32,000 nucleotides of DNA from Candidatus Nanobsidianus stetteri (GTDB lineage Archaea > Nanobdellota > Nanobdellia > Nanobdellales > Nanobdellaceae), in NCBI GenBank assembly GCA_000387965.1, contig APJZ01000007.1, forward strand, positions 14,357 through 46,356, read 5' to 3'. Positions 5,794-32,000 of the stretch are shown in pieces. The position numbers and the translations under genes were made by a program. Positions within the stretch are counted from its first letter, which is position 1. Each line of letters begins with the position of its first letter. The notes under the pieces are model-generated. The model was not told the origin of the DNA and searched no databases. It saw only the letters and a list, made by a program, of their open reading frames with translations.

Positions 5794-5819
5794 AAAATCT
5801 ATCTATATAAAAAATATTT

Positions 5820-11339: not shown

Positions 11340-11341
11340 TT

Positions 11342-12814: not shown

Positions 12815-12892
12815 ATATTTATAGAATAAGATATAATTTATCTGTATTATTATTAGCCACTTTTTATTTATATATATGATATCTTTATAAGC

Positions 12893-13207: not shown

Positions 13208-13257
13208 TTATTTAATTTTTATAAAAAACTTATAACTTTACCTCTTAGATATTAGGA

Positions 13258-14109: not shown

Positions 14110-14494
14110 AGGAAATAAATTAATAAAGGCAACACATAAAAGTACTTTAGAACTTACTAAGGATAATTATCTAACTGAAAGGGGTGATTGTATAATTGGT
14201 ATAAGTGCAAATTATTCTGTAAAAGACTTACCAGAAGATCTTAAAGATCATTTATTAAATGAAGGAAAGATAAAGATTGTAATTAAAGTTGATGATTTAA
14301 TAGATGATATAATTGCATATGGTTCGAGAAAATTATTGTTAACAAATGATAGAAGTATTGTTATAAGAAAAAGCAATTATATTGATGATAGAACTTTAGC
14401 AATAAATTCAAATAAGAGTGCTATTGATATTGATAGAGAATTGATAGAAAGATTAAAAAATGAAAGGGAAATGGAATTTATTATATACTACTAA
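14087..14494 (+). CDS. DUF371-like protein
   Basis: 135 aa. KATHKSTLELTKDNYLTERGDCIIGISA resembles the conserved DUF371 N-terminal block as I recall it. Overlaps the ATP-grasp gene by 23 nt. Confidence 0.55.
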   Translation: MKLVIKAKGNKLIKATHKSTLELTKDNYLTERGDCIIGISANYSVKDLPEDLKDHLLNEGKIKIVIKVDDLIDDIIAYGSRKLLLTNDRSIVIRKSNYIDDRTLAINSNKSAIDIDRELIERLKNEREMEFIIYY

Positions 14495-14499
14495 AAATA

Positions 14500-14507
14500 T
14501 TTATAAA
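14500..14507 (+). promoter_or_regulatory. TATA-box-like element upstream of the surface-protein operon
   Basis: TTTATAAA is centred about 27 nt upstream of the ATG at 14531, the spacing expected for a leaderless archaeal transcript. AT-rich background makes chance matches likely. Confidence 0.3.
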
Positions 14508-14530
14508 GAATAAAATGTTTATCCTTAATT

Positions 14531-15292: not shown

Positions 15293-15296
15293 TGTA

Positions 15297-17267
15297 ATGA
15301 GTTTTTTTGAATATTTTTATAATAACTTCAATTTAATAAAATTAAAAGCTCCTAGTCCAATATATAAAAAATATGCATTTCATTTATGGTTAAATAGATT
15401 AAATACAAATCCGGATAATATATTTTCTTCTGTAATAACTCTTATAGTATTTTCTATAATCATATATTTCATTTTAAGTTTAGTAAGCTTTCAATTAGCT
15501 TTTTCTTTATTAATATCATTATTAATATTATCATTTTACTTTGCATATTATCCAATATTTTATACACAAGTTGTTAGAATACAAGTAACATCAGAAATTG
15601 TATGGATAATATTATATTTGTCATTATATCTAAAAAGGAATCCAAATTTAGAAAATGGAATAAAATATGTAGCATATTATATGAAAGGTTATATTGCAAC
15701 AGACTTTAGATCATTATTATATAATTTGGAAACAAATAAATTTAATGATATTGAATCTGCATTGGAATATTATCAGAGAAGATGGTTTTATTTGAGTCCG
15801 GATTTCGTATATGCAATGACCCATATTGTAAATATTAAATATAAGAATTCTATTGATGATATAAATAAATTATTAGATAGAATTTTGGAATGGGTATTGA
15901 AAAAGTCTTTAGAAAAATCTCAAATATATGTAGATGCATTAAAGGAACCAGCAACAGTTATAGTATCTTTCCTAGTAATGATGCCAATAGTTAGTTTGAT
16001 GATGTTACCAATAATATCTGTATTTTTATTAAATACTGTAAGTTTCTATTTCATAGCATTTTCATATATAATAATTTTACCAGTTATTACATTTTTAATA
16101 ATTCAAAATTTCTTATCAAAAAATCCATTTGCATTTTCTGTTCCAGATTTATCTTTAGCAAGAGATCTACCAAAACCTGGAAAATTTAAAATCGGAAATA
16201 AAGAAGTTCCAGCAATAATAATTTCAATAATATTAGGATCAATTGCAGTTTTAGGAATATATCATTTAATTTCCCTAGCTATAAAAATTACATTTATTCC
16301 ACAGGGATTTTTAAATGATTATTTAAATATAGTTTATCAAGATAGAGCATTAATATATTCTGTTTTAACTTTAACATTACCTTTAGGATTGGGTTTGGGT
16401 ATAGGATCTTATTATTATCTAACATCTTTCCAAAAGGTTAAAAAAATATATCAAATTGAAGAAATAGAAAATGAGTTCCCTATTGTTGTATATGAATTCG
16501 CATCATTATTAGAAGATGGCTATCCATTTGAGATAGTAATTGAAAAAACATATTACAATTATAAAATAATAAAATCTTCAGGGGTTATGGAAAATTTTCT
16601 AAAAACAACATTATATAATTTAAGAAGAGGTTATGATTTAATTACTTCTGTATTCGATCCAAAAATTGGTTCATTAAACTTATATCCATCAAAATTAGTA
16701 AGAGAATCAATGCAATTGTTAGTTACTTCTGCATCAAAAGGTCCTGAAGTTTTATCAAAAATTGCATATAATGTATCAACAAATTTAGAAAATGTGGATA
16801 ATATAAGATATAATGTAAGGAAAATATTAAATGAAATAATTGGATTAATAGATATGACATCAAGAAATCTAGTACCATTAATTTCTGCAATGGTTACGGT
16901 TTTTAATAATGGAGTAGTTTCAATGCTTTTTGCACTTGCATATTTCTTTCAATTAATAGACCAATCTTTTGGTTTAGGTGGGGGATCAAACTTATTCAAT
17001 TTCGTTGTAAATACATTTAATTTATATAATTTAATACCACCAACATTTTTTGAAGCAATAATCGGTATATTCTTTATAGAATATGTAATAATAACCTCAT
17101 ATATGAGTGCTGGAATAAAATATGGATTTGATAGAACAATGACATCATATTATATAGGTAGAAATTTATTATTCGGAACAATATTTTATGTAACATTTTC
17201 AATAATAGGAATATTAATAGTATATACAGTATTTGGCCCATATTTACCAACAAATATACAATTATGA
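15297..17267 (+). CDS. Polytopic membrane protein, candidate FlaJ/TadC/PilC-like (T2SS-F type) assembly platform
   Basis: 656 aa. Two soluble helical segments are each followed by TM bundles, the duplicated T2SS-F layout: about aa 95-215 (EIVWIILYLSLYLKRNPNLENGIKYVAYYM...DIESALEYYQRRW) and about aa 395-510 (EFPIVVYEFASLLEDGYPFEIVIEKTY...LRRGYDLITSVF...SKLVRESMQLLV). Judged by eye, not by profile search. Confidence 0.45.
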   Translation: MSFFEYFYNNFNLIKLKAPSPIYKKYAFHLWLNRLNTNPDNIFSSVITLIVFSIIIYFILSLVSFQLAFSLLISLLILSFYFAYYPIFYTQVVRIQVTSEIVWIILYLSLYLKRNPNLENGIKYVAYYMKGYIATDFRSLLYNLETNKFNDIESALEYYQRRWFYLSPDFVYAMTHIVNIKYKNSIDDINKLLDRILEWVLKKSLEKSQIYVDALKEPATVIVSFLVMMPIVSLMMLPIISVFLLNTVSFYFIAFSYIIILPVITFLIIQNFLSKNPFAFSVPDLSLARDLPKPGKFKIGNKEVPAIIISIILGSIAVLGIYHLISLAIKITFIPQGFLNDYLNIVYQDRALIYSVLTLTLPLGLGLGIGSYYYLTSFQKVKKIYQIEEIENEFPIVVYEFASLLEDGYPFEIVIEKTYYNYKIIKSSGVMENFLKTTLYNLRRGYDLITSVFDPKIGSLNLYPSKLVRESMQLLVTSASKGPEVLSKIAYNVSTNLENVDNIRYNVRKILNEIIGLIDMTSRNLVPLISAMVTVFNNGVVSMLFALAYFFQLIDQSFGLGGGSNLFNFVVNTFNLYNLIPPTFFEAIIGIFFIEYVIITSYMSAGIKYGFDRTMTSYYIGRNLLFGTIFYVTFSIIGILIVYTVFGPYLPTNIQL

Positions 17268-17548
17268 AATTACAACAATCAGTATATTGGATTATAATAA
17301 CTTTTATATTAATTATAGCTGCTGGTCTATTTTCTTTTTATTATATTTATAATGTAAAAAATAATTTAAGTGGAAATAATATACAAACAATTAATTGCCA
17401 ACAGTTGGAAAATTTATATAATAAAAGTTTTCAGGAAATAATTAATATTAAAGTATTTCTTAATGAAAATTGTACAATAAATGGAATAACAATACCTGCT
17501 GGCTATAGAATTATATATATTTATAACGGAAGTATTAATTATATATGA
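17264..17548 (+). CDS. Small pilin-like secreted protein
   Basis: 94 aa. N-terminus MKLQQSVYWIIITFILIIAAGLFSF. ATGA start/stop overlaps with both neighbours. Confidence 0.5.
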   Translation: MKLQQSVYWIIITFILIIAAGLFSFYYIYNVKNNLSGNNIQTINCQQLENLYNKSFQEIINIKVFLNENCTINGITIPAGYRIIYIYNGSINYI

Positions 17549-18024
17549 AAAATGATATAGCAATAGATACTGTATTTATTATCATAATAGCAATAATATC
17601 TGTTGCAGTTATATTAGATATTATTTACACAAAATTCTTTTACAATTCTCAAGCATATTATTGTCAATCATTAATATCACAAGGTGGTTTTTCTCCATCA
17701 TGTGAAAAATATTATCCTTCAGCAATAAATATTATATATACGAATGAAAGTAAGGATACAATTTATTCAGATATAACAGGATTGATATTAAATTGCTACA
17801 ATAATAATGTAAATACAAATAAATTATTTAACATATGTTATGATATTTATATAGATGAAAATATTACTCTACATTCATCAACATTAATTCAATACATACA
17901 AACTTATACTTCATTTAATCCAAATAATGTTATATTTCATTTAAATAATAGTGATGGAAATATTTATCCATACAATAGTATATTTATAATATACAACAAT
18001 AGTTATATTGTAATATGGCAATAA
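17545..18024 (+). CDS. Small pilin-like secreted protein
   Basis: 159 aa. N-terminus MKNDIAIDTVFIIIIAIISVAVILDIIY. Contains Cys residues and sequons. Translationally coupled. Confidence 0.5.
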   Translation: MKNDIAIDTVFIIIIAIISVAVILDIIYTKFFYNSQAYYCQSLISQGGFSPSCEKYYPSAINIIYTNESKDTIYSDITGLILNCYNNNVNTNKLFNICYDIYIDENITLHSSTLIQYIQTYTSFNPNNVIFHLNNSDGNIYPYNSIFIIYNNSYIVIWQ

Positions 18025-18428
18025 AGTCTCAAGAACTTCCAATTAATTATACCTTCTTAATAATTATAGGAATAATTGTTGTATCAGTAATTACTGGAAT
18101 AATATTTTTATTAAAAGGAAATATAACTTCTTATATTAGTAATACAATACCTAAATATAATAATACGCAAACTGTAGTAGAAACAAATGTAAGTTCAGTA
18201 CAAGATGTTGCAATGGATGTTGTAGCATGTTATTATAAAAAAGCGCAGGGTCTTTGTTATTTAATTAATTATCAAGGATCTCCATTTACATGTCAAGATT
18301 TAATAAACAATGTAAGTAGTATAGATCCAAACGTAGTAATGCAAAATTGCAATTATAATATAAATCCTGGAGAATATATATTAGTATATTCGGCAGGAAA
18401 TTATGTTTATATTAATGTTCAAGGATAA
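18015..18428 (+). CDS. Small pilin-like secreted protein
   Basis: 137 aa. N-terminus MAIKSQELPINYTFLIIIGIIVVSVITGIIFLL. Overlaps the upstream gene by 10 nt. Confidence 0.5.
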   Translation: MAIKSQELPINYTFLIIIGIIVVSVITGIIFLLKGNITSYISNTIPKYNNTQTVVETNVSSVQDVAMDVVACYYKKAQGLCYLINYQGSPFTCQDLINNVSSIDPNVVMQNCNYNINPGEYILVYSAGNYVYINVQG

Positions 18429-18430
18429 AA

Positions 18431-18871
18431 ATGGAAAAGTGGTTTTGGATAATTGTAACAATTATTGCATTTGGTTTATCTTTATATTTATATTTTAAAT
18501 TTTCCAGTATAAATAATCAGACTCAATTATTATATCAGGATATATCTTCATGCCAAAATTTATATACAACCATTGAAAAAGTATGTTATTCAAACAATGG
18601 AACGGAATTGTATATTAATATTGAAATAAATAAGTATTTAAATTATATATATGCTAATAATAATTTATTAAGTTGCTATATATATAATGAATATTATAAT
18701 TATACAATACCATGTAATGTAATAATAAATACAGCAAATAATATGATTCAATATTATACTTCCGGACTATTTTATGAATTATCATATGGATATCCAAATG
18801 AAAAAATTCCATTACTTGTTGAAAAAACTTCTCCAACAGAAGTAACAATTTATATAGAAAATCCAAGTTAA
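18431..18871 (+). CDS. Small N-terminally anchored secreted protein
   Basis: 146 aa. N-terminus MEKWFWIIVTIIAFGLSLYLYF. Starts 2 nt after the previous stop. Confidence 0.45.
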   Translation: MEKWFWIIVTIIAFGLSLYLYFKFSSINNQTQLLYQDISSCQNLYTTIEKVCYSNNGTELYINIEINKYLNYIYANNNLLSCYIYNEYYNYTIPCNVIINTANNMIQYYTSGLFYELSYGYPNEKIPLLVEKTSPTEVTIYIENPS

Positions 18872-18907
18872 AACATTTTTAAAATTTTTAAATATTATTA
18901 GATCATA

Positions 18908-20407
18908 ATGAAAAGATATCAATTAAATTTACTTTCAGTAGCAATAATATTGGTAATTATATCTTTAGCTTTTATAATATATTATCAATATTCTATGAAT
19001 GTTAAAGAACAACAAGAAAATTTAATATTTGAAAATTTTATTAATAACTTACAAAATTTAGAAAATACAATAAATAGTATTCAAGGTACATATTATATAA
19101 AAGTCAATATACCAAATGGAATTATATTATATGCAAATGGCCCAAAATTAATAATACAATATAATAATAATAATTATACAATTGATTTTCAAAACAAGAC
19201 AGTAGTTTTATATAATAATAATCAAAATGTGAACTTTTTATATCCAAATAATCATATATATATTGTTAGTACAAATAATACTATTTTTGTTACAACAAAT
19301 CTTCAAAATTCAATTACAATATTAAATGAATATCTATCAAATGGAAATCTTGTATATATAAATCCTGAAAACATAAATAACAATAATGAAGGAAATAATC
19401 AAGGAAATAACAATAATAATATTAACCAAAATGTTCAATGCTTATTTCAATATAATGGACAAGCAAACTTTTTCTGGGGTGATGTAAATGGAAATAATTA
19501 TTTACCTCCAATAGGAGATCAGGGAGAATGTGGAGATTGTTGGGCTTTTGCATCTGCAAATGGAATTGCTTCAATATATATGATAAGAAATAATCAACCA
19601 AATGATGGATTACAATTATCCCCAGCATATTTAGCAATAGAGTGCAATAATGGATATCCAAACACTCCAAATTATTGTAATTCCAATGAAGGTTGTACTG
19701 GTGGTGTTGTATATCCTGCTCTATTATTTACATCTCAATATGGAATTCCACCTGATCAAGGATGGAACTATTATAATTCTACTTTAGCTAACTGTTTAGA
19801 AAATAATAATCAAAATTATCCTGGTGATGTATGTAATTACAATTATAATGGACCTAACTCTCCATTATATTATTCGCAAGGTGTTATATTTCTTACACAA
19901 AATGGACCTTTAACAGATCAACAAGTAATTCAAGATTTATTATGTTATGGACCATTAGTAGCTGCCGGATTTCTAGGAGGTAGTGGTGGATCAAATCCAA
20001 ATATAAATCCTCAACAACCAATACTTAATACAGGACATGCTATGTTATTAGTTGGTTATACCACTAGCAATACTATATATTCCCAACTATGTCAAGAAGT
20101 ATATGAAACCCCTAATTGTTGGATATTTGAGAATCAATGGGGAGATAATTCAGCTTGTATAGTTCTTACTACAAGCGGAGTACCAGTACCTGGACCAAAC
20201 AACCCTAATCAGTGTGGTGAATTATATCAAAATTATCAGGATTGTAATAATTATCTACAATTGGTTCTTAAAGTACCCGGAGTATCATGTGGAGGTGTGT
20301 ATTGGATGCAAGATGGATATTTGCTTGTACCATTCGATCAATCCTCATATGGCCAAACATTTCCATACTATATAGTTGCAATTCAAAATGTCACTCTCGC
20401 ACAATAA
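18908..20407 (+). CDS. N-terminally anchored papain-like (peptidase C1) cysteine protease
   Basis: 499 aa with an N-terminal helix MKRYQLNLLSVAIILVIISLAFII and an Asn-rich linker. The C-terminal domain has DQGECGDCWAFASANG (Gln at -6 and the catalytic Cys codon at 19538-19540), NTGHAMLLVGY (His) and FENQWGDN (Asn-x-Trp). Confidence 0.8.
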   Translation: MKRYQLNLLSVAIILVIISLAFIIYYQYSMNVKEQQENLIFENFINNLQNLENTINSIQGTYYIKVNIPNGIILYANGPKLIIQYNNNNYTIDFQNKTVVLYNNNQNVNFLYPNNHIYIVSTNNTIFVTTNLQNSITILNEYLSNGNLVYINPENINNNNEGNNQGNNNNNINQNVQCLFQYNGQANFFWGDVNGNNYLPPIGDQGECGDCWAFASANGIASIYMIRNNQPNDGLQLSPAYLAIECNNGYPNTPNYCNSNEGCTGGVVYPALLFTSQYGIPPDQGWNYYNSTLANCLENNNQNYPGDVCNYNYNGPNSPLYYSQGVIFLTQNGPLTDQQVIQDLLCYGPLVAAGFLGGSGGSNPNINPQQPILNTGHAMLLVGYTTSNTIYSQLCQEVYETPNCWIFENQWGDNSACIVLTTSGVPVPGPNNPNQCGELYQNYQDCNNYLQLVLKVPGVSCGGVYWMQDGYLLVPFDQSSYGQTFPYYIVAIQNVTLAQ

Positions 20408-21215
20408 ATATTTAATAGCATTATCTATTCTCTTTTTCATAATTTTATCTTACAATATATATTCTATGAGGAATCCATTTGCAGTTTATTGCGAATATGG
20501 TGGAGGAACATATTATATAAATAGTACAGGATCTTATTGTATTGTAAATGGTACATATTTTAATGCTCTACAATATTATGAGAATAATGTGCCTCCCCAA
20601 TATTCTTTCTGTGCCCATTATGGATTAATATATGTAAATAACAGTTATTGTGAATATCCAAATGGAACATTAGTTAGTCCATATACATTAATCCCTCCAT
20701 CAACATATCAAGACCTAATTTTACCTACACCACCTATATTATGTAATAGTTTATTAAATTGTTCAAATACTCCTTGGTATTATCAACCATGTTCAAATCA
20801 AATCTATCCATGCTTTAATCCTCCATATATACCCCAATCTTACTTAACAGGTAATACTTCTTATCAAACTCTTTTATCTACATATCAACAAGAATATCAA
20901 TGTGGGTATTGTCCAGAAAACTTATCATTTGAAGGAGATTGGTTTAGATGTCCATATAATTATTCATTAAATCAGTTATATCAAGAATTTCTAAAACAAT
21001 GTCCACCACCAAATATTGTTTATATATCATGTACAGGAGTATTTGAATGCGTAAATCAGACTGAAATAAATTTAACAAATAATACACAGCAATTAATTTA
21101 TCCACAACCAAATATAAGTAATAAAAGTAATAATGTTAATTTAATTTTACCAATAGCAATAGTAATAGTAATAATTATAATAGGCCTAGTTATTCTTTTA
21201 TATTATCTAAAATGA
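20376..21215 (+). CDS. Cys-rich surface protein with DUF333-like repeats and a C-terminal TM anchor
   Basis: 279 aa with a signal-like segment YLIALSILFFIILSYNIYS. NPFAVYCEYGGGTYYINSTGSYCIVNGTYF resembles the DUF333 (COG3042) NPA-x-VYC...GG...YC pattern, and FCAHYGLIYVNNSYCEYPNGT is a weaker second copy. C-terminal LILPIAIVIVIIIIGLVILLYYLK. The start is uncertain (ATG 20388 also possible). Confidence 0.45.
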   Translation: MQFKMSLSHNKYLIALSILFFIILSYNIYSMRNPFAVYCEYGGGTYYINSTGSYCIVNGTYFNALQYYENNVPPQYSFCAHYGLIYVNNSYCEYPNGTLVSPYTLIPPSTYQDLILPTPPILCNSLLNCSNTPWYYQPCSNQIYPCFNPPYIPQSYLTGNTSYQTLLSTYQQEYQCGYCPENLSFEGDWFRCPYNYSLNQLYQEFLKQCPPPNIVYISCTGVFECVNQTEINLTNNTQQLIYPQPNISNKSNNVNLILPIAIVIVIIIIGLVILLYYLK

Positions 21216-22825
21216 AAAATCAGATAAATACATTAGCATTTGTTATTATTATTTCAATAATAATTTTATTAATTGTTTTAGTTTATCTTTTATCAACTAG
21301 TTCTAGTTCTAAAATAACACAAACATATAATGTAGAAAACCAATATACATTAACAATTCAAAATAGCGTTGATTTATTACCTTATATTTATGATAATAAA
21401 GTTAATTTATCCTATGCATTTTTATTATCATATTTTTCATCTTCTGGAAATGATACATATTGTATAAATCAAAATACATGTACAAACATATCGGAAGATT
21501 TAATAAATTACTTTGACAGTATATATGGAAATAGATGGAATTTAACTATATATTTTATCCCACCAGTAACTGGATGGGTTGTTCAGATGTTTATAATAGG
21601 TGGTAATATTGGAAATTGGGATCCGTGTTCAATGAATCCTCCCCCAGATCCCAATGGTACGCAATGGTATGAATGGAATTACACATATTTCTTTGTAGAT
21701 AATTATACAGAAAATATTAATCTACCGAATGTATACAATCCAATTACTAATACGCCAATAAGTCAAACCTTATATGGAGCAGGATGGGTAAATGCAACAG
21801 CACCTTTTCATCAGTCTAATTCAATAAGTTCTTGGGGATTACCAACATTATATAATAACCTGGATCAATCTCAGGCAATACAAACAGGTTTCTGTACACC
21901 ATTAACAAAAATATTTCCAAATTATAATTTTACAGAAGCTTCTGTATATTGCCCTCAAGGTAAATGGAATCTATTTCCAAATTTTGGAACTTCGCCAACT
22001 TCTTCATTACCACAATTTTTCTCTGGTTGGATAGGAATTGGAACTCCAGTAGCAGGCTCTCAATATTTAACAGATGTTGGTTACTATTATTATGGACCTC
22101 CAACATATAAAACAGCTACTGATATAAATAGATTAGCAGAATTTATAATCCCACAACAATATTTAGATAAAATATGCCAAGAAGAATTTGGTACTCAGCA
22201 ATGCGGGAGTCAAGAATTGATTGTTGGGTCATTTTATAGAGGTGTAGTAAATATACCACCAAATTGTCAGCAAGTATTTATAGATTATCCCTGGCATGAA
22301 GTAATAAGATTATATATTTCATTTTTGAATAAGAGCGGAGAACCAGATTATGTATTTTTAGCGGCAGATCCTCTATGTGAATATAATTTAAATGGAAAAT
22401 TAATAGATTGTCCAACTGGTGTATTTGATAATATACAAAATGTAAATGGAATTATTGTTGGAAAAGACTGTCCTCTAGTTTATTTAATGGATCAAAATTC
22501 ATATGCCGAAGGATTGTATAGATTTAATATTACTAAATGGGTAATAGATGATAGAGATTCAAATACAAATCAATTTATAATTTCTGCAGTATATTATGAT
22601 CCTCATAATGGAGGAAATGGAGTTGCAATGGCAAGAGTATATTGTATTACAAATACTGGAAATAAAGAAGAATTAAACGCATATATTTATCAAGGTAATG
22701 AAGAAAGTATAAATCTAGGATATCCAATACCTCCGAATACAAATATATATGTTTATTATATATATTTACCAGTAGATGTATCATTCTTGGGCGGATATTT
22801 AGTTGCTAAATTAACAGTATGGTAA
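21212..22825 (+). CDS. Large pilin-like-anchored secreted protein, unknown fold
   Basis: 537 aa. N-terminus MKNQINTLAFVIIISIIILLIVLVYLL. Many Cys and N-x-S/T sequons. ATGA overlap with the upstream gene. Confidence 0.55.
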   Translation: MKNQINTLAFVIIISIIILLIVLVYLLSTSSSSKITQTYNVENQYTLTIQNSVDLLPYIYDNKVNLSYAFLLSYFSSSGNDTYCINQNTCTNISEDLINYFDSIYGNRWNLTIYFIPPVTGWVVQMFIIGGNIGNWDPCSMNPPPDPNGTQWYEWNYTYFFVDNYTENINLPNVYNPITNTPISQTLYGAGWVNATAPFHQSNSISSWGLPTLYNNLDQSQAIQTGFCTPLTKIFPNYNFTEASVYCPQGKWNLFPNFGTSPTSSLPQFFSGWIGIGTPVAGSQYLTDVGYYYYGPPTYKTATDINRLAEFIIPQQYLDKICQEEFGTQQCGSQELIVGSFYRGVVNIPPNCQQVFIDYPWHEVIRLYISFLNKSGEPDYVFLAADPLCEYNLNGKLIDCPTGVFDNIQNVNGIIVGKDCPLVYLMDQNSYAEGLYRFNITKWVIDDRDSNTNQFIISAVYYDPHNGGNGVAMARVYCITNTGNKEELNAYIYQGNEESINLGYPIPPNTNIYVYYIYLPVDVSFLGGYLVAKLTVW

Positions 22826-24027
22826 AAAAAGAAGATAAGATTTTATTTCTTATATATTTAATTTTGTTTTTACTTTTTATTTATATTAGCAACTTTAATA
22901 TTAATATAATTATCTTTGGTACAATATATTTATTCTTATTGTCCTTTATATTAAAAAATTCGAAGAATACATCTTTAATATACAAATTAACATTTTTATA
23001 TATACCAATTGGGATTTTTGGAATTTATACCAATCTACCTTTACCATTTCCATTTCCGTCAATATTTACTTATGTAGTAAATTATTGGATATTTTATTTT
23101 ATAGCATTTTCTTTAGGATATTATCTATTTGAAAACAACTTTTATATTTCAAAAAAATCTCTAATATTCTATATAATTTCTATAATTTTATATATAATAT
23201 TATTTTTCTTTGAATTAATATATAATTCTGTAACTACAGATTTAGATGTATCAGTGGGAAATATAATAATTTTATTTCTTATCTTTGTCTCTCTATATCT
23301 ATATATTTTCAAAATAATATATTCATCTCTATTTATAATATTTGCCATATTCTTATTTCTAGTTGCATATTTTAATAGCAATGAAATATTAATAGTAAAA
23401 ACAAAAATATATGAAAAGATATCAAAAATATATAAATACAAAAAGTATATATTTCTGTTAATATTTCTTATAATAATATTACAGATTATCATTGCTATAA
23501 ACAAATTATTATTGTATAATGGTTTAATTATAGAAAGTTCAACTGGAAAATATATTATCTACGAATATGAATCTCTAATATTTTTATCTATATACGAATT
23601 TATAATTTACTTTTTAGTTTATAGAAATTTAAGATATAATAATTATACAAGTTATTTCTTACTTTTTACTATGGTTTTAATAATATTTTTTGGAGAACTA
23701 TATTTATCAAATGTAGATTTTACTTCTGCAGCTTTACATACTAGATATCTAATAGCTATGCTATTTTTCTTTATGGGTATACACCATAAAATATATAAAA
23801 ATAGTAAAAGAGTAATTACAAAAGCTCTAGGTATTTCTATTGGTATTTTAATCTTGTTACAAAATATAACTGGAGAATTCCTTGAATCAGTATTGTTTGG
23901 AGGACCAAGTAGTATACATTTAGTATCTATACCAAATATATTAATAGCACTCGGAATTATACATGGATTAGTAACGCCAATTCTTATATTAACATTTATA
24001 TATTTACATATTAAATTAAAAATATGA
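22819..24027 (+). CDS. Polytopic membrane protein (copy A; C-terminal 2/3 lies inside the inverted repeat)
   Basis: 402 aa with about 10 hydrophobic segments. From VGNIIILFLIF onward it is identical to the partial ORF 31183..32000 (-). Confidence 0.6.
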   Translation: MVKKEDKILFLIYLILFLLFIYISNFNINIIIFGTIYLFLLSFILKNSKNTSLIYKLTFLYIPIGIFGIYTNLPLPFPFPSIFTYVVNYWIFYFIAFSLGYYLFENNFYISKKSLIFYIISIILYIILFFFELIYNSVTTDLDVSVGNIIILFLIFVSLYLYIFKIIYSSLFIIFAIFLFLVAYFNSNEILIVKTKIYEKISKIYKYKKYIFLLIFLIIILQIIIAINKLLLYNGLIIESSTGKYIIYEYESLIFLSIYEFIIYFLVYRNLRYNNYTSYFLLFTMVLIIFFGELYLSNVDFTSAALHTRYLIAMLFFFMGIHHKIYKNSKRVITKALGISIGILILLQNITGEFLESVLFGGPSSIHLVSIPNILIALGIIHGLVTPILILTFIYLHIKLKI

Positions 24028-24606
24028 GAAATCAAACAGAAATTATTTATGTAGTTTTATTTCTAACAATTGCTATATTAATAATCCTTCTATCTTTCTA
24101 TGCATTGACATATAATTATAATCAAAATATTGTTTTTAATAGATTCACTTCTTTATCTACACTATCAAACTATTTTTTGGGATATTTACAAACATTATTA
24201 ACACAGGAAAGTTATGCAGAATCATATTTAGCTGGAACAAATGGATGGGGAAAAGAAAATTGGGCTTCTTATCCTTACGGATGTATATTACCTCAATCAT
24301 GTCAAAATGCAATTCAATATTATAATAACTTGCTAACTTCTGGATATCAAACTTTATTAACTTTTGGAGAACAATATTTAACTGCATATCAATATTATTA
24401 TCCTTATAATGTATCTTTCAATTTTTCAAATAATTATCAGGCAGGAATCTTCGGAGATTGTAATAATATAATTTCCGGAGAATATAATTATAATTTTCCT
24501 GTCTATGTTCAAGGATTATATATAAATATTACTGGACCTTCTTCAGGTTCAATAATTCCATATGCAAGTACATCAAATATAACAAACAATCCCGCATTCT
24601 ATTTAT
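23210..24606 (+). repeat. Inverted repeat arm A (at least 1397 bp, identical to arm B)
   Basis: Position x here pairs with position 55210-x on the opposite strand. Spot-checked DNA at 23211-23260, 24001-24060, 24361-24420 and 24591-24606. All four ORF-track proteins in the arms are identical between copies. Confidence 0.9.
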
Positions 24607-24614
24607 TTAACTAA
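24024..24614 (+). CDS. Truncated duplicate of the 412-aa pilin-like Cys-rich protein
   Basis: 196 aa. The first 194 aa are identical to ORF 29948..31186 (-). Identity ends at 24606 and a TAA follows at 24612-24614. Confidence 0.5.
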   Translation: MRNQTEIIYVVLFLTIAILIILLSFYALTYNYNQNIVFNRFTSLSTLSNYFLGYLQTLLTQESYAESYLAGTNGWGKENWASYPYGCILPQSCQNAIQYYNNLLTSGYQTLLTFGEQYLTAYQYYYPYNVSFNFSNNYQAGIFGDCNNIISGEYNYNFPVYVQGLYINITGPSSGSIIPYASTSNITNNPAFYLFN

Positions 24615-25086
24615 TCAATCATCAATAATTGGAATAGCGGTTGCAACAAATGTAATAAGTTTATATGTTGGACAAGAATATAAATATTCTGTCTTAATAA
24701 AAAATCTAGTACCAGCAGATATTCAATGTTCTTTAGTACCAACTCCATCAACTACAAACGATAAAGCAATTGTTACAAATTATAGTATAAATGGAATAGT
24801 TAGCAATGAATTTACTATAGGTCCTTATGGATCTGCAGAATTAGATATAAATATTTTAGGATCTTCCAGTGGTGTAAGTAGTTTGGTATATGGTATAACA
24901 TGTAATTCTACATATGGTTCCTCATCATTTAGTACCCAAGTTCCAATATATGTATTGGGACCAAATAATTTAATAGCAAACTATACACAATCTGAAATAG
25001 TAGTATCTGAAAATATATCTCCAACAGATTTAATTGGAATTGGGGGTTTAATAGTAGGATTACTTGCTTTGTTTAATATAATCTAA
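24583..25086 (+). pseudogene. Start-less open frame encoding a beta-rich surface module with a C-terminal TM anchor (orphaned 3' gene part, or joined to 24024..24614 by a +1 shift)
   Basis: Frame 1 is open from 24583 to the stop at 25084-25086, about 167 codons, with no ATG/GTG/TTG before the TTG at 24883. The translation ...LIKNLVPADIQCSLVPTPSTTNDKAIVTNYSINGIVSNEFTIGPYGSAELDINILG...PTDLIGIGGLIVGLLALFNII looks like real coding sequence. It begins exactly where the repeat identity ends. Confidence 0.4.
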
Positions 25087-25371
25087 TTTTTTTAATTTTT
25101 TTCTTATTTCCAATATTATGTCATGAAGTGCAGCACCTAAAAATAATGTTGTTAATATATATAATTCATACAAATATGTAATTGCTCCAATTATTATTGA
25201 TATTATTCCAAATATTGATAAATACATATGATGAATCTTTGCTCTATATTCTCTTGTCTTTGTTCTAATTTCAATAAAGAATTCTGGTGAAAATTTTTTA
25301 ATTATATAATCTGCTGAAAAATATCCTATTATGAATGATAGACCATAAGTCATTATAGTGATATCGTTCAT
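25060..25371 (-). CDS. Small membrane protein, unknown function
   Basis: 103-aa ORF with 3 hydrophobic segments. Converges on and overlaps the end of the 24583..25086 frame. Confidence 0.45.
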   Translation of the reverse strand: MNDITIMTYGLSFIIGYFSADYIIKKFSPEFFIEIRTKTREYRAKIHHMYLSIFGIISIIIGAITYLYELYILTTLFLGAALHDIILEIRKKLKKLDYIKQSK

Positions 25372-25425
25372 TTTATAATATTTTTATTCATCATTTTAAA
25401 AAATTATATCATATAAATTAATTAC

Positions 25426-25710
25426 ATGGATCTAAAAATAATAAATAGGGAAAATAATCAATTATTAAATAGGGAAGAAATTATTGTTTTAATAGATCAT
25501 AAAAATGAACCAACACCAAAGAGAGATGATATAAGGGAAAAAATTTCAGCAATGATTGGAAAAGACAAAAATTTAATTGTAGTAGAAAAAATATTAACAG
25601 AATTTGGAAAACAGAGATCAAAAGCATTTGTAAATGTATATCAGAATGAAGAAGATATGAAAAAATTAGAGCCAAAACATATATTAAAAAGGAATAAAAT
25701 TATACAATGA
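25426..25710 (+). CDS. rps24e: 30S ribosomal protein S24e (eS24)
   Basis: 94 aa. NQLLNREEIIVLIDHKNEPTPKRDDIREKISAMIGKDKNLIVVEKILTEFGKQRSKAFVNVY matches the S24e pattern. Followed by S27ae as in most archaea. Confidence 0.9.
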   Translation: MDLKIINRENNQLLNREEIIVLIDHKNEPTPKRDDIREKISAMIGKDKNLIVVEKILTEFGKQRSKAFVNVYQNEEDMKKLEPKHILKRNKIIQ

Positions 25711-25910
25711 GCGGAAAGAAAGATTTGAAAATATTAAAATTATACAAGGTTGAGGATAATAAGGTAGTTAGATTGAAAAAGGTATGTCCAAAATGTGGAA
25801 GATTTATGGCAGAGCATGAGGATAGGTATCATTGTGGATATTGTGGATATACAGAATTTAAGCAAAATATAGAAAAGAAGTATATAAAGGAAATTGGAAT
25901 ACAAATATAA
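25707..25910 (+). CDS. rps27ae: 30S ribosomal protein S27ae (eS31)
   Basis: 67 aa. Zinc ribbon CPKCGRFMAEHEDRYHCGYCGYTEF. ATGA overlap with rps24e. Confidence 0.88.
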   Translation: MSGKKDLKILKLYKVEDNKVVRLKKVCPKCGRFMAEHEDRYHCGYCGYTEFKQNIEKKYIKEIGIQI

Positions 25911-26214
25911 TATAAAATATTTTGGTCCTTTTAGATCTTTTATTGGTTTAATGTTTCAGTTACCAAAAGAAAATACAATATATATTTTAGATTTAAAAAA
26001 GGATGTTGAAGATGGATTTGTTCATACATTTTTTTGTCTAAAACCATTAGATATTTATTTATATAATTCAAATTTTGAATTAGTCCAATATTCTAAAAAG
26101 TTAAAACCATTTAAAATCATAATTCCAAAGAAAAAATTTAGGTATATAATTGAGGGTTTAGATATAAATGAAGATATGTTAAATTATACAATAGATTATT
26201 TAAAATCTCTGTAA
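25894..26214 (+). CDS. DUF192-like small protein
   Basis: 106 aa with a TTG start in the track. GLMF...HTFFCLKPLDIYLYNSNFELV...FRYIIEG resembles the DUF192 (COG1430) core blocks. The start codon is uncertain. Confidence 0.4.
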   Translation: MEYKYNIKYFGPFRSFIGLMFQLPKENTIYILDLKKDVEDGFVHTFFCLKPLDIYLYNSNFELVQYSKKLKPFKIIIPKKKFRYIIEGLDINEDMLNYTIDYLKSL

Positions 26215-26586
26215 ATTATTAGTTAATATTTCTATTTCTACAAACAATCTATCAATCATGCTTTTTATTTCTTTTATTCCATTATTTATTTGTCCAATTA
26301 TTTCAATTTTTATGTTTGGTGTTATATATGGATTTCCACTTATTTCTTTATAATATAAAGTTATATAATCTTTTATACTCTCTAAAATACTTATCAATAA
26401 TTTCATTGAACTTATTAAATTATTAATTTCTTGCATTTGATAATTATATAAATTGTAGGGATTTCCACTAATATTTTTTTCATATTCATTTAAACTTTGT
26501 AATTGTAAAACATAGTTATTTATTTGTGATAATAAATTTCTTATTTGAGTTAATAATTGATTTTCCAAATCTTGAATATTATCCAT
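26200..26586 (-). CDS. Small helical/coiled-coil protein with an internal duplication
   Basis: 128 aa, heptad-like and rich in Q/N/L/I. ISGNPY occurs at aa 39-44 and 82-87, each followed by a similar helix. Confidence 0.45.
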   Translation of the reverse strand: MDNIQDLENQLLTQIRNLLSQINNYVLQLQSLNEYEKNISGNPYNLYNYQMQEINNLISSMKLLISILESIKDYITLYYKEISGNPYITPNIKIEIIGQINNGIKEIKSMIDRLFVEIEILTNNLQRF

Positions 26587-26616
26587 AATTAATTAATATT
26601 TTAACTATTTTATATT

Positions 26617-26672
26617 TTTTCAGGGAGGAGGTGTATTCATCATTTATCAGTCGCGCGCAACATCATCATATA
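26617..26672 (-). ncRNA. C/D box sRNA candidate (2'-O-methylation guide)
   Basis: Minus strand reads AUGAUGA (C, 26669-26663), 12 nt UGUUGCGCGCGA, CUGA (D', 26650-26647), UAA, AUGAUGA (C', 26643-26637), 13 nt AUACACCUCCUCC, CUGA (D, 26623-26620). All four boxes match consensus with canonical archaeal spacing. The guides are GC-rich in an otherwise AT-rich spacer. Confidence 0.7.
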
Positions 26673-27280
26673 AATTTTAATATTCCTTCCCTCTTATCTT
26701 TATTTAATATTTCTTTTATTGTTTTAAAATCTTGATCAAAATATTCTCTCCATTCTTTATGATATAATGTAGATGCTGGATGTAATGTTGGAATTATTGT
26801 AATATTTTTTCCCCATTTATTTACTTTAAATATTTTTCCTCTTAATTTTGTTATTGAGGAAAATTTTAATTTAAAATAATCGAAAATCCATTTTGTTGAA
26901 TAATGACCTAAAGTTACTATTATATCTGGCTGAATTATTTCTAATTGTTTTTCCAACCAAATAGAACATGCCTTTATTTCTTCTTCTTCAGGTTCTCTAT
27001 TTTCTGGAGGCCTGCATTTAACAACATTAGTTATATATACATCTTTTCTATCCATATTTAATATATTTTTTATATTTTCAGTTAATACTTGTCCAGCTCT
27101 TCCAACAAAAGGTTTTCCCTGTTTATCCTCTTCTCTACCAGGTGCTTCTCCTATAAATAATATCTTTGAATTTGGATTACCATCACCAGGAACATAATTT
27201 GTTTTAAATTTATATAAAGGGCATCTTGTACATTTTAATATTTGATTATTTAATTCTTCAATCATTTTTTCTTTATCCAT
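26666..27280 (-). CDS. udg: Uracil-DNA glycosylase, family 4 (Fe-S type)
   Basis: 204 aa. CTRCPL...GDGNPNSKILFIGEAPGREEDKQGKPFVGRAGQVL (GEAPG motif), VVKCRPP, KACSIW (cluster Cys) and TLHPASTLY (motif B). Confidence 0.88.
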   Translation of the reverse strand: MDKEKMIEELNNQILKCTRCPLYKFKTNYVPGDGNPNSKILFIGEAPGREEDKQGKPFVGRAGQVLTENIKNILNMDRKDVYITNVVKCRPPENREPEEEEIKACSIWLEKQLEIIQPDIIVTLGHYSTKWIFDYFKLKFSSITKLRGKIFKVNKWGKNITIIPTLHPASTLYHKEWREYFDQDFKTIKEILNKDKREGILKFI

Positions 27281-27313
27281 TAAAAATATAAGTATGATAA
27301 TTATTTTAGTTTA

Positions 27314-28144
27314 ATGTTTGCACATGCTCAAGGTGAATATGATAAATCAAAATGGATAATAGTAGGAATCCCATCCGAAATTGGTAGTTTATCTCATGTA
27401 AAAAATTATATTGAGGGTCCAGAATCAATTAGAGACGCATCTTATAGAATATTTTCTCCAATATTTGGAGATATAAATATGGAAGAAATATATGATTATG
27501 GTGATATAGACTTAGAAGATATAAAAGATCTGGATAAATTATATGAAAAAATATATAATGAAATTAAAAAGATATATAGAAAAGATAAAAAATATATATT
27601 TTTTGGAGGAGATCATTCAATAACATATCCAATATTAAAAATTGTTAAAGAAAATTGGGAAGATTTTTATTTATTGTATTTTGATGCTCATCCAGATATA
27701 CATCCAGATCCATATCCAAATTATCAAAGTTTTATTTATCATTTAATAAAGGAAAATTATATTGAACCTGAAAAAATTATTTTTGTTGGTATATCTAATC
27801 TATCATTCGAAGAAAAAAATATAATAAAAGAATGGGGGATAAAATATTATAATCCTTTGGATGTTTGGGATAATATAAAGGAAATTTCAAAAGAAATATC
27901 AGATATATTAAAAAATAAAAATTTATACATTTCAATTGATATAGATGTATTTGATACTGGATGCGGACATTGGTTAGAAGGTATTGGAATTAGACCATAT
28001 CATTATTTTAAGATTATAAAGGAATTAAGAAACATTAATTTAATTGGCTTTGATTTAGTAGAATTATTTTCAAATGAAGTATGTGATAATTTAGCATCAA
28101 AAATAGTAATAGAAACTATTGCAATGTTTAATAATAAATTATAA
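27314..28144 (+). CDS. speB: Ureohydrolase family protein, probable agmatinase
   Basis: 276 aa. Mn-ligand motifs FFGGDHSITYP, YFDAHPDIHPD and SIDIDVFD are all present. pdaD elsewhere in the window fits an arginine to agmatine to putrescine route. Confidence 0.8.
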   Translation: MFAHAQGEYDKSKWIIVGIPSEIGSLSHVKNYIEGPESIRDASYRIFSPIFGDINMEEIYDYGDIDLEDIKDLDKLYEKIYNEIKKIYRKDKKYIFFGGDHSITYPILKIVKENWEDFYLLYFDAHPDIHPDPYPNYQSFIYHLIKENYIEPEKIIFVGISNLSFEEKNIIKEWGIKYYNPLDVWDNIKEISKEISDILKNKNLYISIDIDVFDTGCGHWLEGIGIRPYHYFKIIKELRNINLIGFDLVELFSNEVCDNLASKIVIETIAMFNNKL

Positions 28145-28159
28145 TTATCTTTGAAAAAT

Positions 28160-29230
28160 TTAGATATGCTTTTTATATATTAAATGTATATAAATTAATA
28201 CTAATCCTATAATTGCTAATATTAGTAAGTTTATTGAAAATAAAATTATAAATAAAGGAAAATTAAATATAGTTCCTGGATTAATATAGTAGAAATAATT
28301 TGCTAAATTCATTAATATAAATGGTATTCCTGAAACAATTCCCAAAATTATTTTTTTACTGTCTGGAAACCTATGAAATAAATATGCATGAATTGCAGTA
28401 AAGAAAAATAAAAACATAATTATAATATTTTGAATAATGTAAATTATATTGTTTTTTGTTAAGAAGAATAGAATTGTAAAGAAGATAAATAGAAATATTA
28501 TTAATATTAAAATATATGCTGTGAACCCTTCCGGTTTATTATTAAATATTCTTTTAATCATCAACATTAAAATAAATTCTAATATTGTGAATAATGATAT
28601 GGTAAATAATATTAAAATATTTTGAACAATTAAAGAAAGTATTAACTGTATGGATAAGAAAAGAGAAATTATAGAGAAGATAATCTGTTTATTTTTGTCT
28701 AAAAAATTTAATGAAGTTAAATGATATATTTTTTTATCATCTAAATTGAATAAAAATCCTAAAAGAGATATAAAAAATAGTGAATAAATATTCATAATAT
28801 TATATGATGTTATAAATAAAACATATATTAGAGAAATTGTTAATATTATTATTTGCTTTCTATTTATAGATAATTTATTCTCTGCGACAAAATTTCCAAA
28901 GAAATAAAATAAAATAAATGAAAAGAATACATAAACAAAATATTTAAATAAAATATTATTGAAAATATTCAATATAGGCAATATAAAAATTAATAGATAT
29001 AAAATTTTTATCATATTGAATTTTGTATTTTTCAGGAAATAATATAAAGCAAAGAAGTAAAATATTCCAAATAAGATATAATATAAATTTGTAAAAAATA
29101 ATATAGATATTGGGAATATTATTAAATATAATATAAGTATATGTTTATTGATATTTTTGTTTTCGTCAATTAATTTATCTATAATAGTTTCACCCATTAT
29201 ATATAAAAATCCATTAAAACTTTTATGCAA
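28160..29230 (-). CDS. Polytopic membrane protein, possible paralog of the 402-aa membrane protein
   Basis: 356 aa with about 10 hydrophobic segments. Shares local patterns with ORF 22819..24027: YFLKNTKFNMIKILYLLIFI versus FILKNSKNTSLIYKLTFLYI, and AIHAYLFHRFPDSKKIILGIVSGI versus GIHHKIYKNSKRVITKALGISIGI. Its start overlaps the upstream pilin-like gene by 8 nt. Confidence 0.5.
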   Translation of the reverse strand: MHKSFNGFLYIMGETIIDKLIDENKNINKHILILYLIIFPISILFFTNLYYILFGIFYFFALYYFLKNTKFNMIKILYLLIFILPILNIFNNILFKYFVYVFFSFILFYFFGNFVAENKLSINRKQIIILTISLIYVLFITSYNIMNIYSLFFISLLGFLFNLDDKKIYHLTSLNFLDKNKQIIFSIISLFLSIQLILSLIVQNILILFTISLFTILEFILMLMIKRIFNNKPEGFTAYILILIIFLFIFFTILFFLTKNNIIYIIQNIIIMFLFFFTAIHAYLFHRFPDSKKIILGIVSGIPFILMNLANYFYYINPGTIFNFPLFIILFSINLLILAIIGLVLIYIHLIYKKHI

Positions 29231-29870
29231 TTCTAAAGTATGTTTGATTAATTCTTTCTAAATATGCTGTTACAAGTTGATAAAATGTAATATTATTTAC
29301 TGAATAGCATGGTATATAATTGCATATAATATCTCCATTTGTATTTTCAGTACATGTTACATTTCCAGATAAATTTGTTGGAAATAAGAATACAAAAGTT
29401 TGATTTGAAGTATTTTCATTACTTAAACAAAAACTATATAAAAAGTAATAGAAATCTGAATAATAGTTTTTACATATAGTTAATTTAATATAGTCTAAAG
29501 AATAATATACAGAAATTGGATATGTATATGTATTACAATTTCCATTAAAATTTATTATTCCAAAACTATAATTATCTATTTCTGCTCTAAATGTATAGGG
29601 AAATATTGTACAATTTGGAAGTTCATTATAATATGTTTGGTTAAATTCTTCTATTTTATCTAAAGTTGTAAAATATATTGGATAGCCAGGATATCCTAAA
29701 CAATTGGGAGAAAATAGGTCATATATTATATCTTGTTCATATGAAAAAGATGTTTGTTCTTGATAATTTGTTAAATTTACATTGGAAAATATAGCTAATA
29801 AAATTATCATTCCAACTAAAAATAATACTGTTAATATTGTTATAAATACTATGGAAAATTGCTCTTTCAT
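29223..29870 (-). CDS. Pilin-like-anchored Cys-rich secreted protein
   Basis: 215 aa. N-terminus MKEQFSIVFITILTVLFLVGMIILLAIF. Many Cys and N-x-S/T sequons. Confidence 0.5.
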   Translation of the reverse strand: MKEQFSIVFITILTVLFLVGMIILLAIFSNVNLTNYQEQTSFSYEQDIIYDLFSPNCLGYPGYPIYFTTLDKIEEFNQTYYNELPNCTIFPYTFRAEIDNYSFGIINFNGNCNTYTYPISVYYSLDYIKLTICKNYYSDFYYFLYSFCLSNENTSNQTFVFLFPTNLSGNVTCTENTNGDIICNYIPCYSVNNITFYQLVTAYLERINQTYFRIA

Positions 29871-29947
29871 TTTATTTAATTATTTAAAACATATTTTATA
29901 TCCTTAACTTTTTCTGTCAGATTTGTTTTCATTTTTCCATATAAGGA

Positions 29948-31186
29948 TTAACTGGATGGTTGTGGTACACATTCATTTGGGAAATTTATATTTTCTGGGC
30001 AAGTTGGATTATTTGGACATTGTCCAAGTAAACATGCAGGACATTGTTGTCCACCAATTATACACATATAACATTGAATTGGGATTGAATAATAATATTG
30101 AAAAGTATATATTACTTCATTATTTTGCTGATTTGTATTTAAATTACCACAACCACTTTGGGAAGTACATGAATATTGTTGATTTTCTAATGTACAACTT
30201 TGAGATATTATTTGTTTGCTTGTTGAATTATATACTTCAGTACAGTCATATACACAATTTAGATAATATTGATTTGTTATATTTTCATAAAAAACTATTG
30301 AAGTAATAGATATGGTTTGTGGATATGTATTACCATTATAATATACATTATATTGGTTATCAGAACATTTTAATATTACTCTACATGCAATTTCTTGTGG
30401 ATATAAACATATCTGGCATAATGGAATATTTACACATTGATATGGAATTATTGTTTCATTACATTGAATATTTGGATCATTTGAAAATTGCTCAAATTCT
30501 TGTGCACAAGTATATGTTGGGTTATTGTTTAAAGCATTTGAACAATCCTGATATGAACATTCTGAAAAATCTCCATTTTGAGAGAATTGATATGCTAAGT
30601 TATATAAATAGAATGCGGGATTGTTTGTTATATTTGATGTACTTGCATATGGAATTATTGAACCTGAAGAAGGTCCAGTAATATTTATATATAATCCTTG
30701 AACATAGACAGGAAAATTATAATTATATTCTCCGGAAATTATATTATTACAATCTCCGAAGATTCCTGCCTGATAATTATTTGAAAAATTGAAAGATACA
30801 TTATAAGGATAATAATATTGATATGCAGTTAAATATTGTTCTCCAAAAGTTAATAAAGTTTGATATCCAGAAGTTAGCAAGTTATTATAATATTGAATTG
30901 CATTTTGACATGATTGAGGTAATATACATCCGTAAGGATAAGAAGCCCAATTTTCTTTTCCCCATCCATTTGTTCCAGCTAAATATGATTCTGCATAACT
31001 TTCCTGTGTTAATAATGTTTGTAAATATCCCAAAAAATAGTTTGATAGTGTAGATAAAGAAGTGAATCTATTAAAAACAATATTTTGATTATAATTATAT
31101 GTCAATGCATAGAAAGATAGAAGGATTATTAATATAGCAATTGTTAGAAATAAAACTACATAAATAATTTCTGTTTGATTTCTCAT
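29948..31186 (-). CDS. Pilin-like-anchored Cys-rich secreted protein (full-length copy)
   Basis: 412 aa. N-terminus MRNQTEIIYVVLFLTIAILIILLSFYAL. About two dozen Cys, densest at the C-terminus (CYMCIIGGQQCPACLLGQCPNNPTCPENINFPNEC). The first 194 aa lie in repeat arm B. Confidence 0.6.
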   Translation of the reverse strand: MRNQTEIIYVVLFLTIAILIILLSFYALTYNYNQNIVFNRFTSLSTLSNYFLGYLQTLLTQESYAESYLAGTNGWGKENWASYPYGCILPQSCQNAIQYYNNLLTSGYQTLLTFGEQYLTAYQYYYPYNVSFNFSNNYQAGIFGDCNNIISGEYNYNFPVYVQGLYINITGPSSGSIIPYASTSNITNNPAFYLYNLAYQFSQNGDFSECSYQDCSNALNNNPTYTCAQEFEQFSNDPNIQCNETIIPYQCVNIPLCQICLYPQEIACRVILKCSDNQYNVYYNGNTYPQTISITSIVFYENITNQYYLNCVYDCTEVYNSTSKQIISQSCTLENQQYSCTSQSGCGNLNTNQQNNEVIYTFQYYYSIPIQCYMCIIGGQQCPACLLGQCPNNPTCPENINFPNECVPQPSS

Positions 31187-32000
31187 ATTTTTAATTTAAT
31201 ATGTAAATATATAAATGTTAATATAAGAATTGGCGTTACTAATCCATGTATAATTCCGAGTGCTATTAATATATTTGGTATAGATACTAAATGTATACTA
31301 CTTGGTCCTCCAAACAATACTGATTCAAGGAATTCTCCAGTTATATTTTGTAACAAGATTAAAATACCAATAGAAATACCTAGAGCTTTTGTAATTACTC
31401 TTTTACTATTTTTATATATTTTATGGTGTATACCCATAAAGAAAAATAGCATAGCTATTAGATATCTAGTATGTAAAGCTGCAGAAGTAAAATCTACATT
31501 TGATAAATATAGTTCTCCAAAAAATATTATTAAAACCATAGTAAAAAGTAAGAAATAACTTGTATAATTATTATATCTTAAATTTCTATAAACTAAAAAG
31601 TAAATTATAAATTCGTATATAGATAAAAATATTAGAGATTCATATTCGTAGATAATATATTTTCCAGTTGAACTTTCTATAATTAAACCATTATACAATA
31701 ATAATTTGTTTATAGCAATGATAATCTGTAATATTATTATAAGAAATATTAACAGAAATATATACTTTTTGTATTTATATATTTTTGATATCTTTTCATA
31801 TATTTTTGTTTTTACTATTAATATTTCATTGCTATTAAAATATGCAACTAGAAATAAGAATATGGCAAATATTATAAATAGAGATGAATATATTATTTTG
31901 AAAATATATAGATATAGAGAGACAAAGATAAGAAATAAAATTATTATATTTCCCACTGATACATCTAAATCTGTAGTTACAGAATTATATATTAATTCAA
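30604..32000 (-). repeat. Inverted repeat arm B (cut by window end)
   Basis: Reverse complement of 23210-24606, matching at every position I checked. The outer limit is unknown because the window ends. Confidence 0.9.
31183..32000 (-). CDS. Polytopic membrane protein (copy B; 5' end beyond window)
   Basis: Identical to the C-terminal 257+ aa of ORF 22819..24027. Identity continues to the last base of the window, so the GTG at 31956 used by the track is probably internal. Confidence 0.6.
   Translation of the reverse strand, partial: ELIYNSVTTDLDVSVGNIIILFLIFVSLYLYIFKIIYSSLFIIFAIFLFLVAYFNSNEILIVKTKIYEKISKIYKYKKYIFLLIFLIIILQIIIAINKLLLYNGLIIESSTGKYIIYEYESLIFLSIYEFIIYFLVYRNLRYNNYTSYFLLFTMVLIIFFGELYLSNVDFTSAALHTRYLIAMLFFFMGIHHKIYKNSKRVITKALGISIGILILLQNITGEFLESVLFGGPSSIHLVSIPNILIALGIIHGLVTPILILTFIYLHIKLKI

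Follow-up and report, generated by a model that had tools for sequence, protein, structure and literature searches.

An exact inverted repeat at a contig end of the Nanobsidianus stetteri draft genome is very probably a fold-back chimera

Introduction

Inverted chimeras are a described product of multiple displacement amplification (MDA): in a set of 475 MDA chimeras, inverted joins made up 85%, most partners were separated by less than 10 kb, and 93.5% of the junctions between proximal partners carried 2–21 nt of complementarity (Lasken and Stockwell, 2007; PMC1855051). The draft genome of Candidatus Nanobsidianus stetteri (Nst1) was built from five flow-sorted particles, each amplified by phi29 MDA and sequenced as 100-nt Illumina pairs with digital normalization; contigs assembled with Velvet at k 59–61 were then co-assembled in Geneious, and the draft also includes metagenomic polymerase chain reaction (PCR) sequence (Podar et al., 2013; PMC3655853). 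The authors of the Nst1/Acd1 assembly describe inversions and duplications at contig ends, for which they give "repetitive regions" as the cause (PMC3655853). Here, we analyze a 32,000-nt stretch of this draft (hereafter the window) that ends in a long, perfect inverted repeat bracketing a 6-kb segment with ribosomal-protein genes. The window spans positions 14357–46356 of a 46,356-bp contig (JGI 3300000456 OBNano_10008), i.e., its last 32 kb; in the published gene table this contig is C7, the last of the seven in the draft, and Nst1_659 is its final gene.

We report that the repeat is very probably an artifact of draft production, a fold-back chimera at the contig end, and not a feature of the genome. 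An invertible segment very probably does not exist. This reading is carried by the following evidence: the arm sequence is single-copy in relatives, one of the two inner junctions breaks two conserved genes and is absent from related loci, the second arm ends with the contig, and the draft derives from MDA-amplified single cells.

Results

The repeat is exact and ends at the last base of the contig

Direct base comparison shows that 23210–24606 is the exact reverse complement of 30604–32000, with 0 mismatches in 1397 positions, as the initial annotation had stated. An independent repeat search recovered the same pair of arms, reaching 1408 nt only if mismatches are allowed in the adjoining 11 nt. 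It is the sole long inverted repeat that this search found in the window; all others are at most 52 nt long and at most 84% identical, and are AT-rich background. The inner edge is sharp, with 8 of 11 positions pairing past 24606 and random complementarity beyond 24617. The window is 75% A+T, and a repeat of this length and identity cannot arise in it by chance. The deposited sequence thus does contain the inverted repeat. The arm content given in the initial annotation also holds: from about codon 131 onward, the left arm carries the 3′ two thirds of a 402-aa gene, and it ends after codon 194 of the next gene. The identity had been described as running into the window edge. It does reach 32000, but that edge is the physical end of the contig (46356 of 46356) and not an arbitrary cut, so that extending the sequence to find an outer boundary, as had been proposed, leads nowhere in this assembly.

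The locus comprises the following features, in window coordinates, with the closed genome of N. acidilobi (L002) and a 62-kb contig of a metagenome-assembled genome (MAG; L003) as references.

1..23209, plus strand: segment X, native sequence upstream of the repeat, with collinear alignment to L002 and L003 over 14011–23209
22819–24027, plus strand: 402-aa polytopic membrane protein gene, Nst1_646
23210..24606, plus strand: left arm A, native and contiguous with X, holding the 3′ two thirds of the 402-aa gene and 194 codons of the 412-aa gene
24024..24614, plus strand: truncated 196-aa open reading frame (ORF) Nst1_647 (EOD42230.1, UniRef100_R1FSX8), very probably artifactual
24603..24607, no strand: J1, the probable chimeric fold-back junction 24606/24607, with the final 4 nt, TTAT, common to both parents
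24607..25086, plus strand: C-terminal 159 codons of a ~1420-aa S-layer-domain protein, from alignment to the L002 and L003 proteins
24883–25086, plus strand: 67-aa ORF, a fragment of the ~1420-aa gene, probably Nst1_648
24607..30603, no strand: segment M, 5997 bp of real sequence, in the wrong orientation relative to X-A as judged from alignment to relatives
29948..31186, minus strand: intact 412-aa gene, Nst1_658, spanning the second inner junction, J2
30604..32000, minus strand: right arm A′, the left-arm segment on the other strand, ended by the contig end

From 14011 on, segment X encodes RimK and DUF371, together with clustered Cys-rich proteins anchored at the N-terminus, among them a C1 peptidase. 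Between the tail of the ~1420-aa gene at one end of segment M and the 3′ half of the 412-aa gene at the other lie a 103-aa gene, rps24e, rps27ae, genes of 106 and 128 aa, udg, speB, the gene for a 356-aa membrane protein and a 215-aa gene. The right arm holds a partial 271-aa gene model, Nst1_659. A Pfam search with hmmscan gave no match for the 402-, 412-, 215-, 356-, 537- and 279-aa proteins or for the large ~1420-aa protein. The 412-aa protein has an N-terminal hydrophobic helix and 24 cysteines, and with these features alone the label "pilin-like", given to it in the initial annotation, is not retained. Between the 402-aa and 356-aa membrane proteins there is marginal similarity (30% over 93 aa, E = 0.007).

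The arm sequence is single-copy and the locus collinear in relatives

We compared the gene tables of L002, L003 and a 7.9-kb metagenome contig (L004) that is ~99% identical to the window over X-A. All three share the order C1 peptidase – 274/275 – 537/549 – 402/403 – 408/412/413 – 215 – 344/345/362 – speB(–), where numbers are protein lengths in amino acids and the 402-aa gene is called as 366 aa in N. acidilobi. L004 ends at speB, and L002 and L003 go on with udg – 128 – 87/106(–) – S27ae(–) – S24e(–) – 102/103 – 1417/1421(–) – Lon(–). The arm sequence is single-copy in each of the three.

Scans with the large ~1420-aa protein brought in 43 further loci from genomes and metagenomes. When the window was aligned to 47 loci with blastn, X-A and the terminal piece of the contig mapped to the same region on opposite strands, and their subject ranges overlapped by ~1.4 kb in every locus long enough to show the overlap. 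Alignments of X-A end at 24610–24621, and those of the terminal piece start at 24596–24600 and run to 32000. We then rebuilt the locus by joining 14011–23209 to the reverse complement of 24607–32000. The rebuilt sequence aligns with L003 (93.2%) and with N. acidilobi (89.2%) as a single collinear 16.6-kb high-scoring segment pair in each case, and the whole of L004 is covered at 98.6%.

The comparison with related strains and MAGs, which the initial annotation had put forward, thus returned a single-copy, collinear order that favors an artifact. Of the three origins listed there, an assembly artifact is the one we favor; a very recent duplication is disfavored on grounds given below, and ongoing gene conversion between true paralogs is rejected because two copies are present in no relative. 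The proposed inversion of a segment with rps24e, rps27ae, udg and speB is not supported either, since in all relatives a single site, present once, accounts for both arms.

One junction is native and the other breaks two conserved genes

The two inner edges of the repeat form the junctions J1 (24606/24607) and J2 (30603/30604). The 412-aa protein encoded across J2 has 47 homologs, including one in the closed N. acidilobi genome; most are 399–440 aa long with 97–100% query coverage, and four partial matches cover 50–93%. We consider J2 native because an intact, conserved gene spans it. At J1, the left copy of the same gene reads ...AFYLFN and then stops, at 196 aa, where the intact copy reads ...AFYLYNLAYQ...; Nst1_647 consists of 194 codons of the 412-aa gene followed by two out-of-frame codons and a stop made by J1. 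Frame 0 is open from J1 through 24607–25086 and encodes LTNQSSIIGIAVATN...GLLALFNII up to the stop, including a C-terminal membrane anchor. This product aligns position by position with the final 159 residues of the 1417- and 1421-aa proteins of N. acidilobi and the MAG. J1 therefore joins, out of frame, codon 194 of the 412-aa gene and the terminal 159 codons of a different gene. Two conserved genes are broken together: the 412-aa gene is interrupted at codon 194 and the ~1420-aa gene loses its N-terminal ~1260 codons. It had been suggested that recombination between the arms would exchange 3′ modules of the pilin-like gene, a notion that is not supported, as past the left arm the sequence is the end of an unrelated gene in another frame.

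With up to 14 mismatches allowed, none of 46 related loci contains a 60-mer centered on J1. The native junction from A to the inverted M segment is present in 20 loci (18 distinct records), and 32 loci (30 distinct records) run unbroken across the breakpoint in the large gene.

These counts bear on the idea of a simple 6-kb inversion, without duplication, in one of the five sorted cells, in which case co-assembly would have merged an inverted allele (J1) with a native one (J2). The draft does merge five cells and metagenomic PCR sequence, and a hybrid of two alleles would give the deposited X-A-M-A′ layout. Such an inversion would break the conserved 412-aa and ~1420-aa genes, which is unlikely in a viable cell with a reduced genome of ~0.6 Mb; no natural contig has J1 and the reciprocal junction was not seen. 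We regard this scenario as scarcely credible.

One candidate for a naturally short homolog of the 412-aa protein, P0043 (228 aa), was rejected as a frameshifted gene call with no J1-like junction. Its 4-kb metagenome contig (L048; JGI 3300005623 Ga0077576_10059) is collinear with 27055–31070 at 94% identity with 19 indels, which break the 412-aa and speB genes into fragment gene calls. Short "homologs" in the protein database can thus be frameshift artifacts.

The large S-layer-domain gene would continue on contig C6

Nst1 contig C6 opens, in the published gene table, with Nst1_583, which bears the annotation "S-layer domain" (arCOG02079); LonB, a membrane protein, TFIIB (SUA7), POP5 and a proteasome subunit come next. 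After its 1417-aa gene, N. acidilobi has LonB, a 320-aa membrane protein, TFIIB, a proteasome subunit and SBDS. Since the two gene orders match, the start of C6 appears to be the native neighbor of the corrected end of C7, and the large gene would be split by an assembly gap between C7 and C6. Sequence searches did not bring up the C6 copy. A protein search with the large gene matched only cluster representatives from other genomes, Nst1_583 is not among the 15 members listed of a 26-member cluster, a search with the membrane protein adjoining LonB gave no Nst1 representative, and none of the 43 loci from the large-protein scans of genome and metagenome contigs comes from the Nst1 assembly.

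The ~1420-aa protein also adjoins LonB elsewhere (L002 16074–20327; L012 10001–14254), and is conserved with 52–94% identity across Nanopusillaceae, Nanobdella aerobiophila MJ1 and strain YN1 among them. Its C-terminus is a membrane anchor (...GIGGLIVGLLALFNII).

The position of the large gene adds to the evidence on a genuine, very recent inverted duplication in Nst1, in which real copies of A would flank a 6-kb segment that homologous recombination could flip. The repeat is, after all, present in the deposited sequence, and it was kept through the authors' curation into the final seven-contig assembly. A duplication of this kind is nonetheless most improbable. No second copy of A and no J1 occurs in any relative examined, including the ~99% identical contig and the closed genome. 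The right arm has no outer flank, as the contig ends with it; J1 leaves neither of two conserved genes intact, and the large gene goes on in C6 as the native order would lead one to expect; and zero divergence between the arms is what an artifact predicts. No recombinase Pfam domain was found in the 6-kb segment or its flanks, a result of little weight since homologous recombination needs none.

Both readings in which the structure is genuine are disfavored because they need two broken conserved genes, absence in relatives and a coincidence with a contig end in a dataset known for errors of this type; even added together they are left with a very small share of the probability. It is accordingly very improbable that Nst1, or one sorted cell, carries a very recent inverted duplication of at least 1.4 kb that lets the 6-kb ribosomal-protein block flip. 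Were it so, a flip-capable duplication would have sacrificed an S-layer-domain gene and a conserved surface protein gene, and a large perfect repeat would sit in a reduced nanoarchaeal genome of ~0.6 Mb.

A fold-back during amplification may explain the repeat

If the repeat is an artifact, the true order would be X, A, the reverse complement of M, the rest of the large S-layer-domain gene and LonB, with A present once. The deposited contig would run forward through X and A to 24606, then switch to the opposite strand 5,997 bp further on, inside the large gene, from where it would read back through M into A again and stop at the contig end. The repeat would be perfect because the same DNA is represented twice, and arm identity of 100% over 1397 nt is expected because both arms would come from the same reads.

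The likeliest physical origin would be an inverted chimera formed in phi29 MDA. A displaced 3′ end, ...TTAT, may have re-annealed on a nearby displaced strand, and the chimera would then have been fixed by the Velvet and Geneious co-assembly of the five single-cell datasets. J1 bears the signature of MDA junctions: the join is inverted, the partners lie 5,997 bp apart and complementarity is short, with a 4-nt exact match (TTAT) and 15 of 21 positions matching in the span around the junction.

A purely computational mis-join, with no chimeric molecule, would likewise be an artifact and would differ only in where the error arose: Geneious would have linked a contig with A at its end to the reverse complement of one that stops within the large gene, through a short, AT-rich, imperfect overlap at ~24596–24621. 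The authors blame "repetitive regions" for contig-end errors and used a secondary overlap assembler (PMC3655853), the parental alignments overlap by ~26 nt around J1, and the sequence is 75% A+T. The overlap, however, matches at 15 of 21 positions around an exact core of 4 nt. Overlap assemblers usually demand far more, the Velvet k of 59–61 is likewise far higher, and J1 fits the profile of MDA chimeras well. We favor a physical MDA chimera because Velvet at k = 59–61 cannot make the junction from a 4-nt exact or an imperfect 21-nt overlap, and we infer that J1 was present in the amplified DNA and not created purely in silico. The mis-join is the less likely of the two origins, though it deserves to be taken seriously.

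Several points weigh against an artifact, or against the way in which we explain it. The microhomology span was picked after the junction had been seen, and the chance estimates for it (0.011 for the 4-nt exact match and 0.0003 for 15/21, empirical values from random position pairs in the window) are only suggestive. J1 is known from the assembled consensus and not from individual reads, and the link to C6 comes from published gene tables and not from direct sequence overlap with 24607–25086. The authors also state that errors of this type were identified, PCR-checked and corrected (PMC3655853), and the fold-back is still in the final published contig and gene table (Nst1_646–659). Either it slipped past curation or it had some support in the authors' eyes.

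A conserved cluster of surface-type genes with one polymorphic member

The regions 14531–24027 and 29223–31186 hold a gene cluster that is kept in N. acidilobi and L003 and comprises 13 genes when the 356-aa gene is counted. Nine of the products open with a short polar stretch (often M-K/R-N/E-Q) ahead of a hydrophobic helix, six carry 12–24 cysteines, and one is a C1 papain-like peptidase. The first protein of the cluster starts with MKRRGIDMAVQLIFVIII, resembling an archaeal class III (prepilin-like) signal. None of the seven cluster proteins that were scanned has a Pfam match, and precomputed tables give none for the other genes except the peptidase. The cluster may form a module for the cell surface or for contact with the host.

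The 402-aa and 412-aa genes (22819–24027 and 29948–31186) have 78–80% nucleotide identity in several relatives (L005, L007, L010 and L023), and the housekeeping block from rps24e to speB is less diverged in the same four, at 89–93%. This suggests that the two products are fast-evolving surface proteins.

Between speB and the 215-aa gene, the 356-aa ORF (28160–29230, minus strand; 345 aa according to JGI) shows a clean presence/absence polymorphism, the site being 28135–29223. The window, N. acidilobi, L003, L004, L006, L008, L018 and L034–L036 have it; it is precisely absent from L005, L007, L010/L028, L014, L020, L023, L026, L029, L032 and L033, whose locus coordinates run on across the site without a break. 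Without the gene, the region of the speB stop abuts the end of the 215-aa gene (...AATAAATT/TATGCAAT...), with a few bases of microhomology.

Discussion

The value of these findings lies in data hygiene and not in biology. The public Nst1 record holds artifactual gene models that should be disregarded: Nst1_647, a truncated copy; Nst1_659, a duplicated partial gene; and the 67-aa ORF at 24883–25086, a fragment of the large gene. To correct C7, the contig would be cut at 24606/24607, the terminal piece flipped and the arms merged. One gap of the draft would be closed in this way, since the corrected end would meet the start of C6 within the S-layer-domain gene that adjoins LonB. As a screening rule for single-cell assemblies made from MDA products, perfect inverted repeats that touch a contig end should be filtered before any biological reading.

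The locus has the formal geometry of several genuine systems, with a segment that lies between two identical, inverted arms, one of them ending in a surface-protein gene; these systems are the flip-flop of plastid inverted repeats, shufflons that swap pilin C-termini and phase-variation invertons. Unlike in those systems, the arms here correspond to a single-copy site in all relatives and no outer flank follows the second arm; an alternative 3′ module, a recombinase and, in related genomes, an alternative orientation are all absent. The properties of an invertible segment are thus missing throughout, from separate outer flanks for the two arms and a repeat or both orientations in relatives to coding that stays in frame each way and a recombinase. 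What we find are the properties of an artifact: an MDA template with secondary merging, a locus that is single-copy in relatives, identical arms that abut a contig end, and a novel junction that interrupts conserved genes and is absent from related loci.

Closer likenesses lie in the dataset itself and in the chemistry behind it. The errors described for Nst1/Acd1 (PMC3655853) come from the same dataset, share the position at a contig end and combine inversion with duplication; unlike those that were corrected, this one remains in the final C7 and in the models Nst1_647, Nst1_659 and probably Nst1_648. With respect to the MDA chimeras analyzed previously (PMC1855051), the object here differs in being an assembled consensus with a contig end that back-tracks over 7.4 kb instead of one chimeric read. 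It resembles them in that its second segment is inverted, its partners lie less than 10 kb apart, its junction has short complementarity and its source is the product of single-cell MDA.

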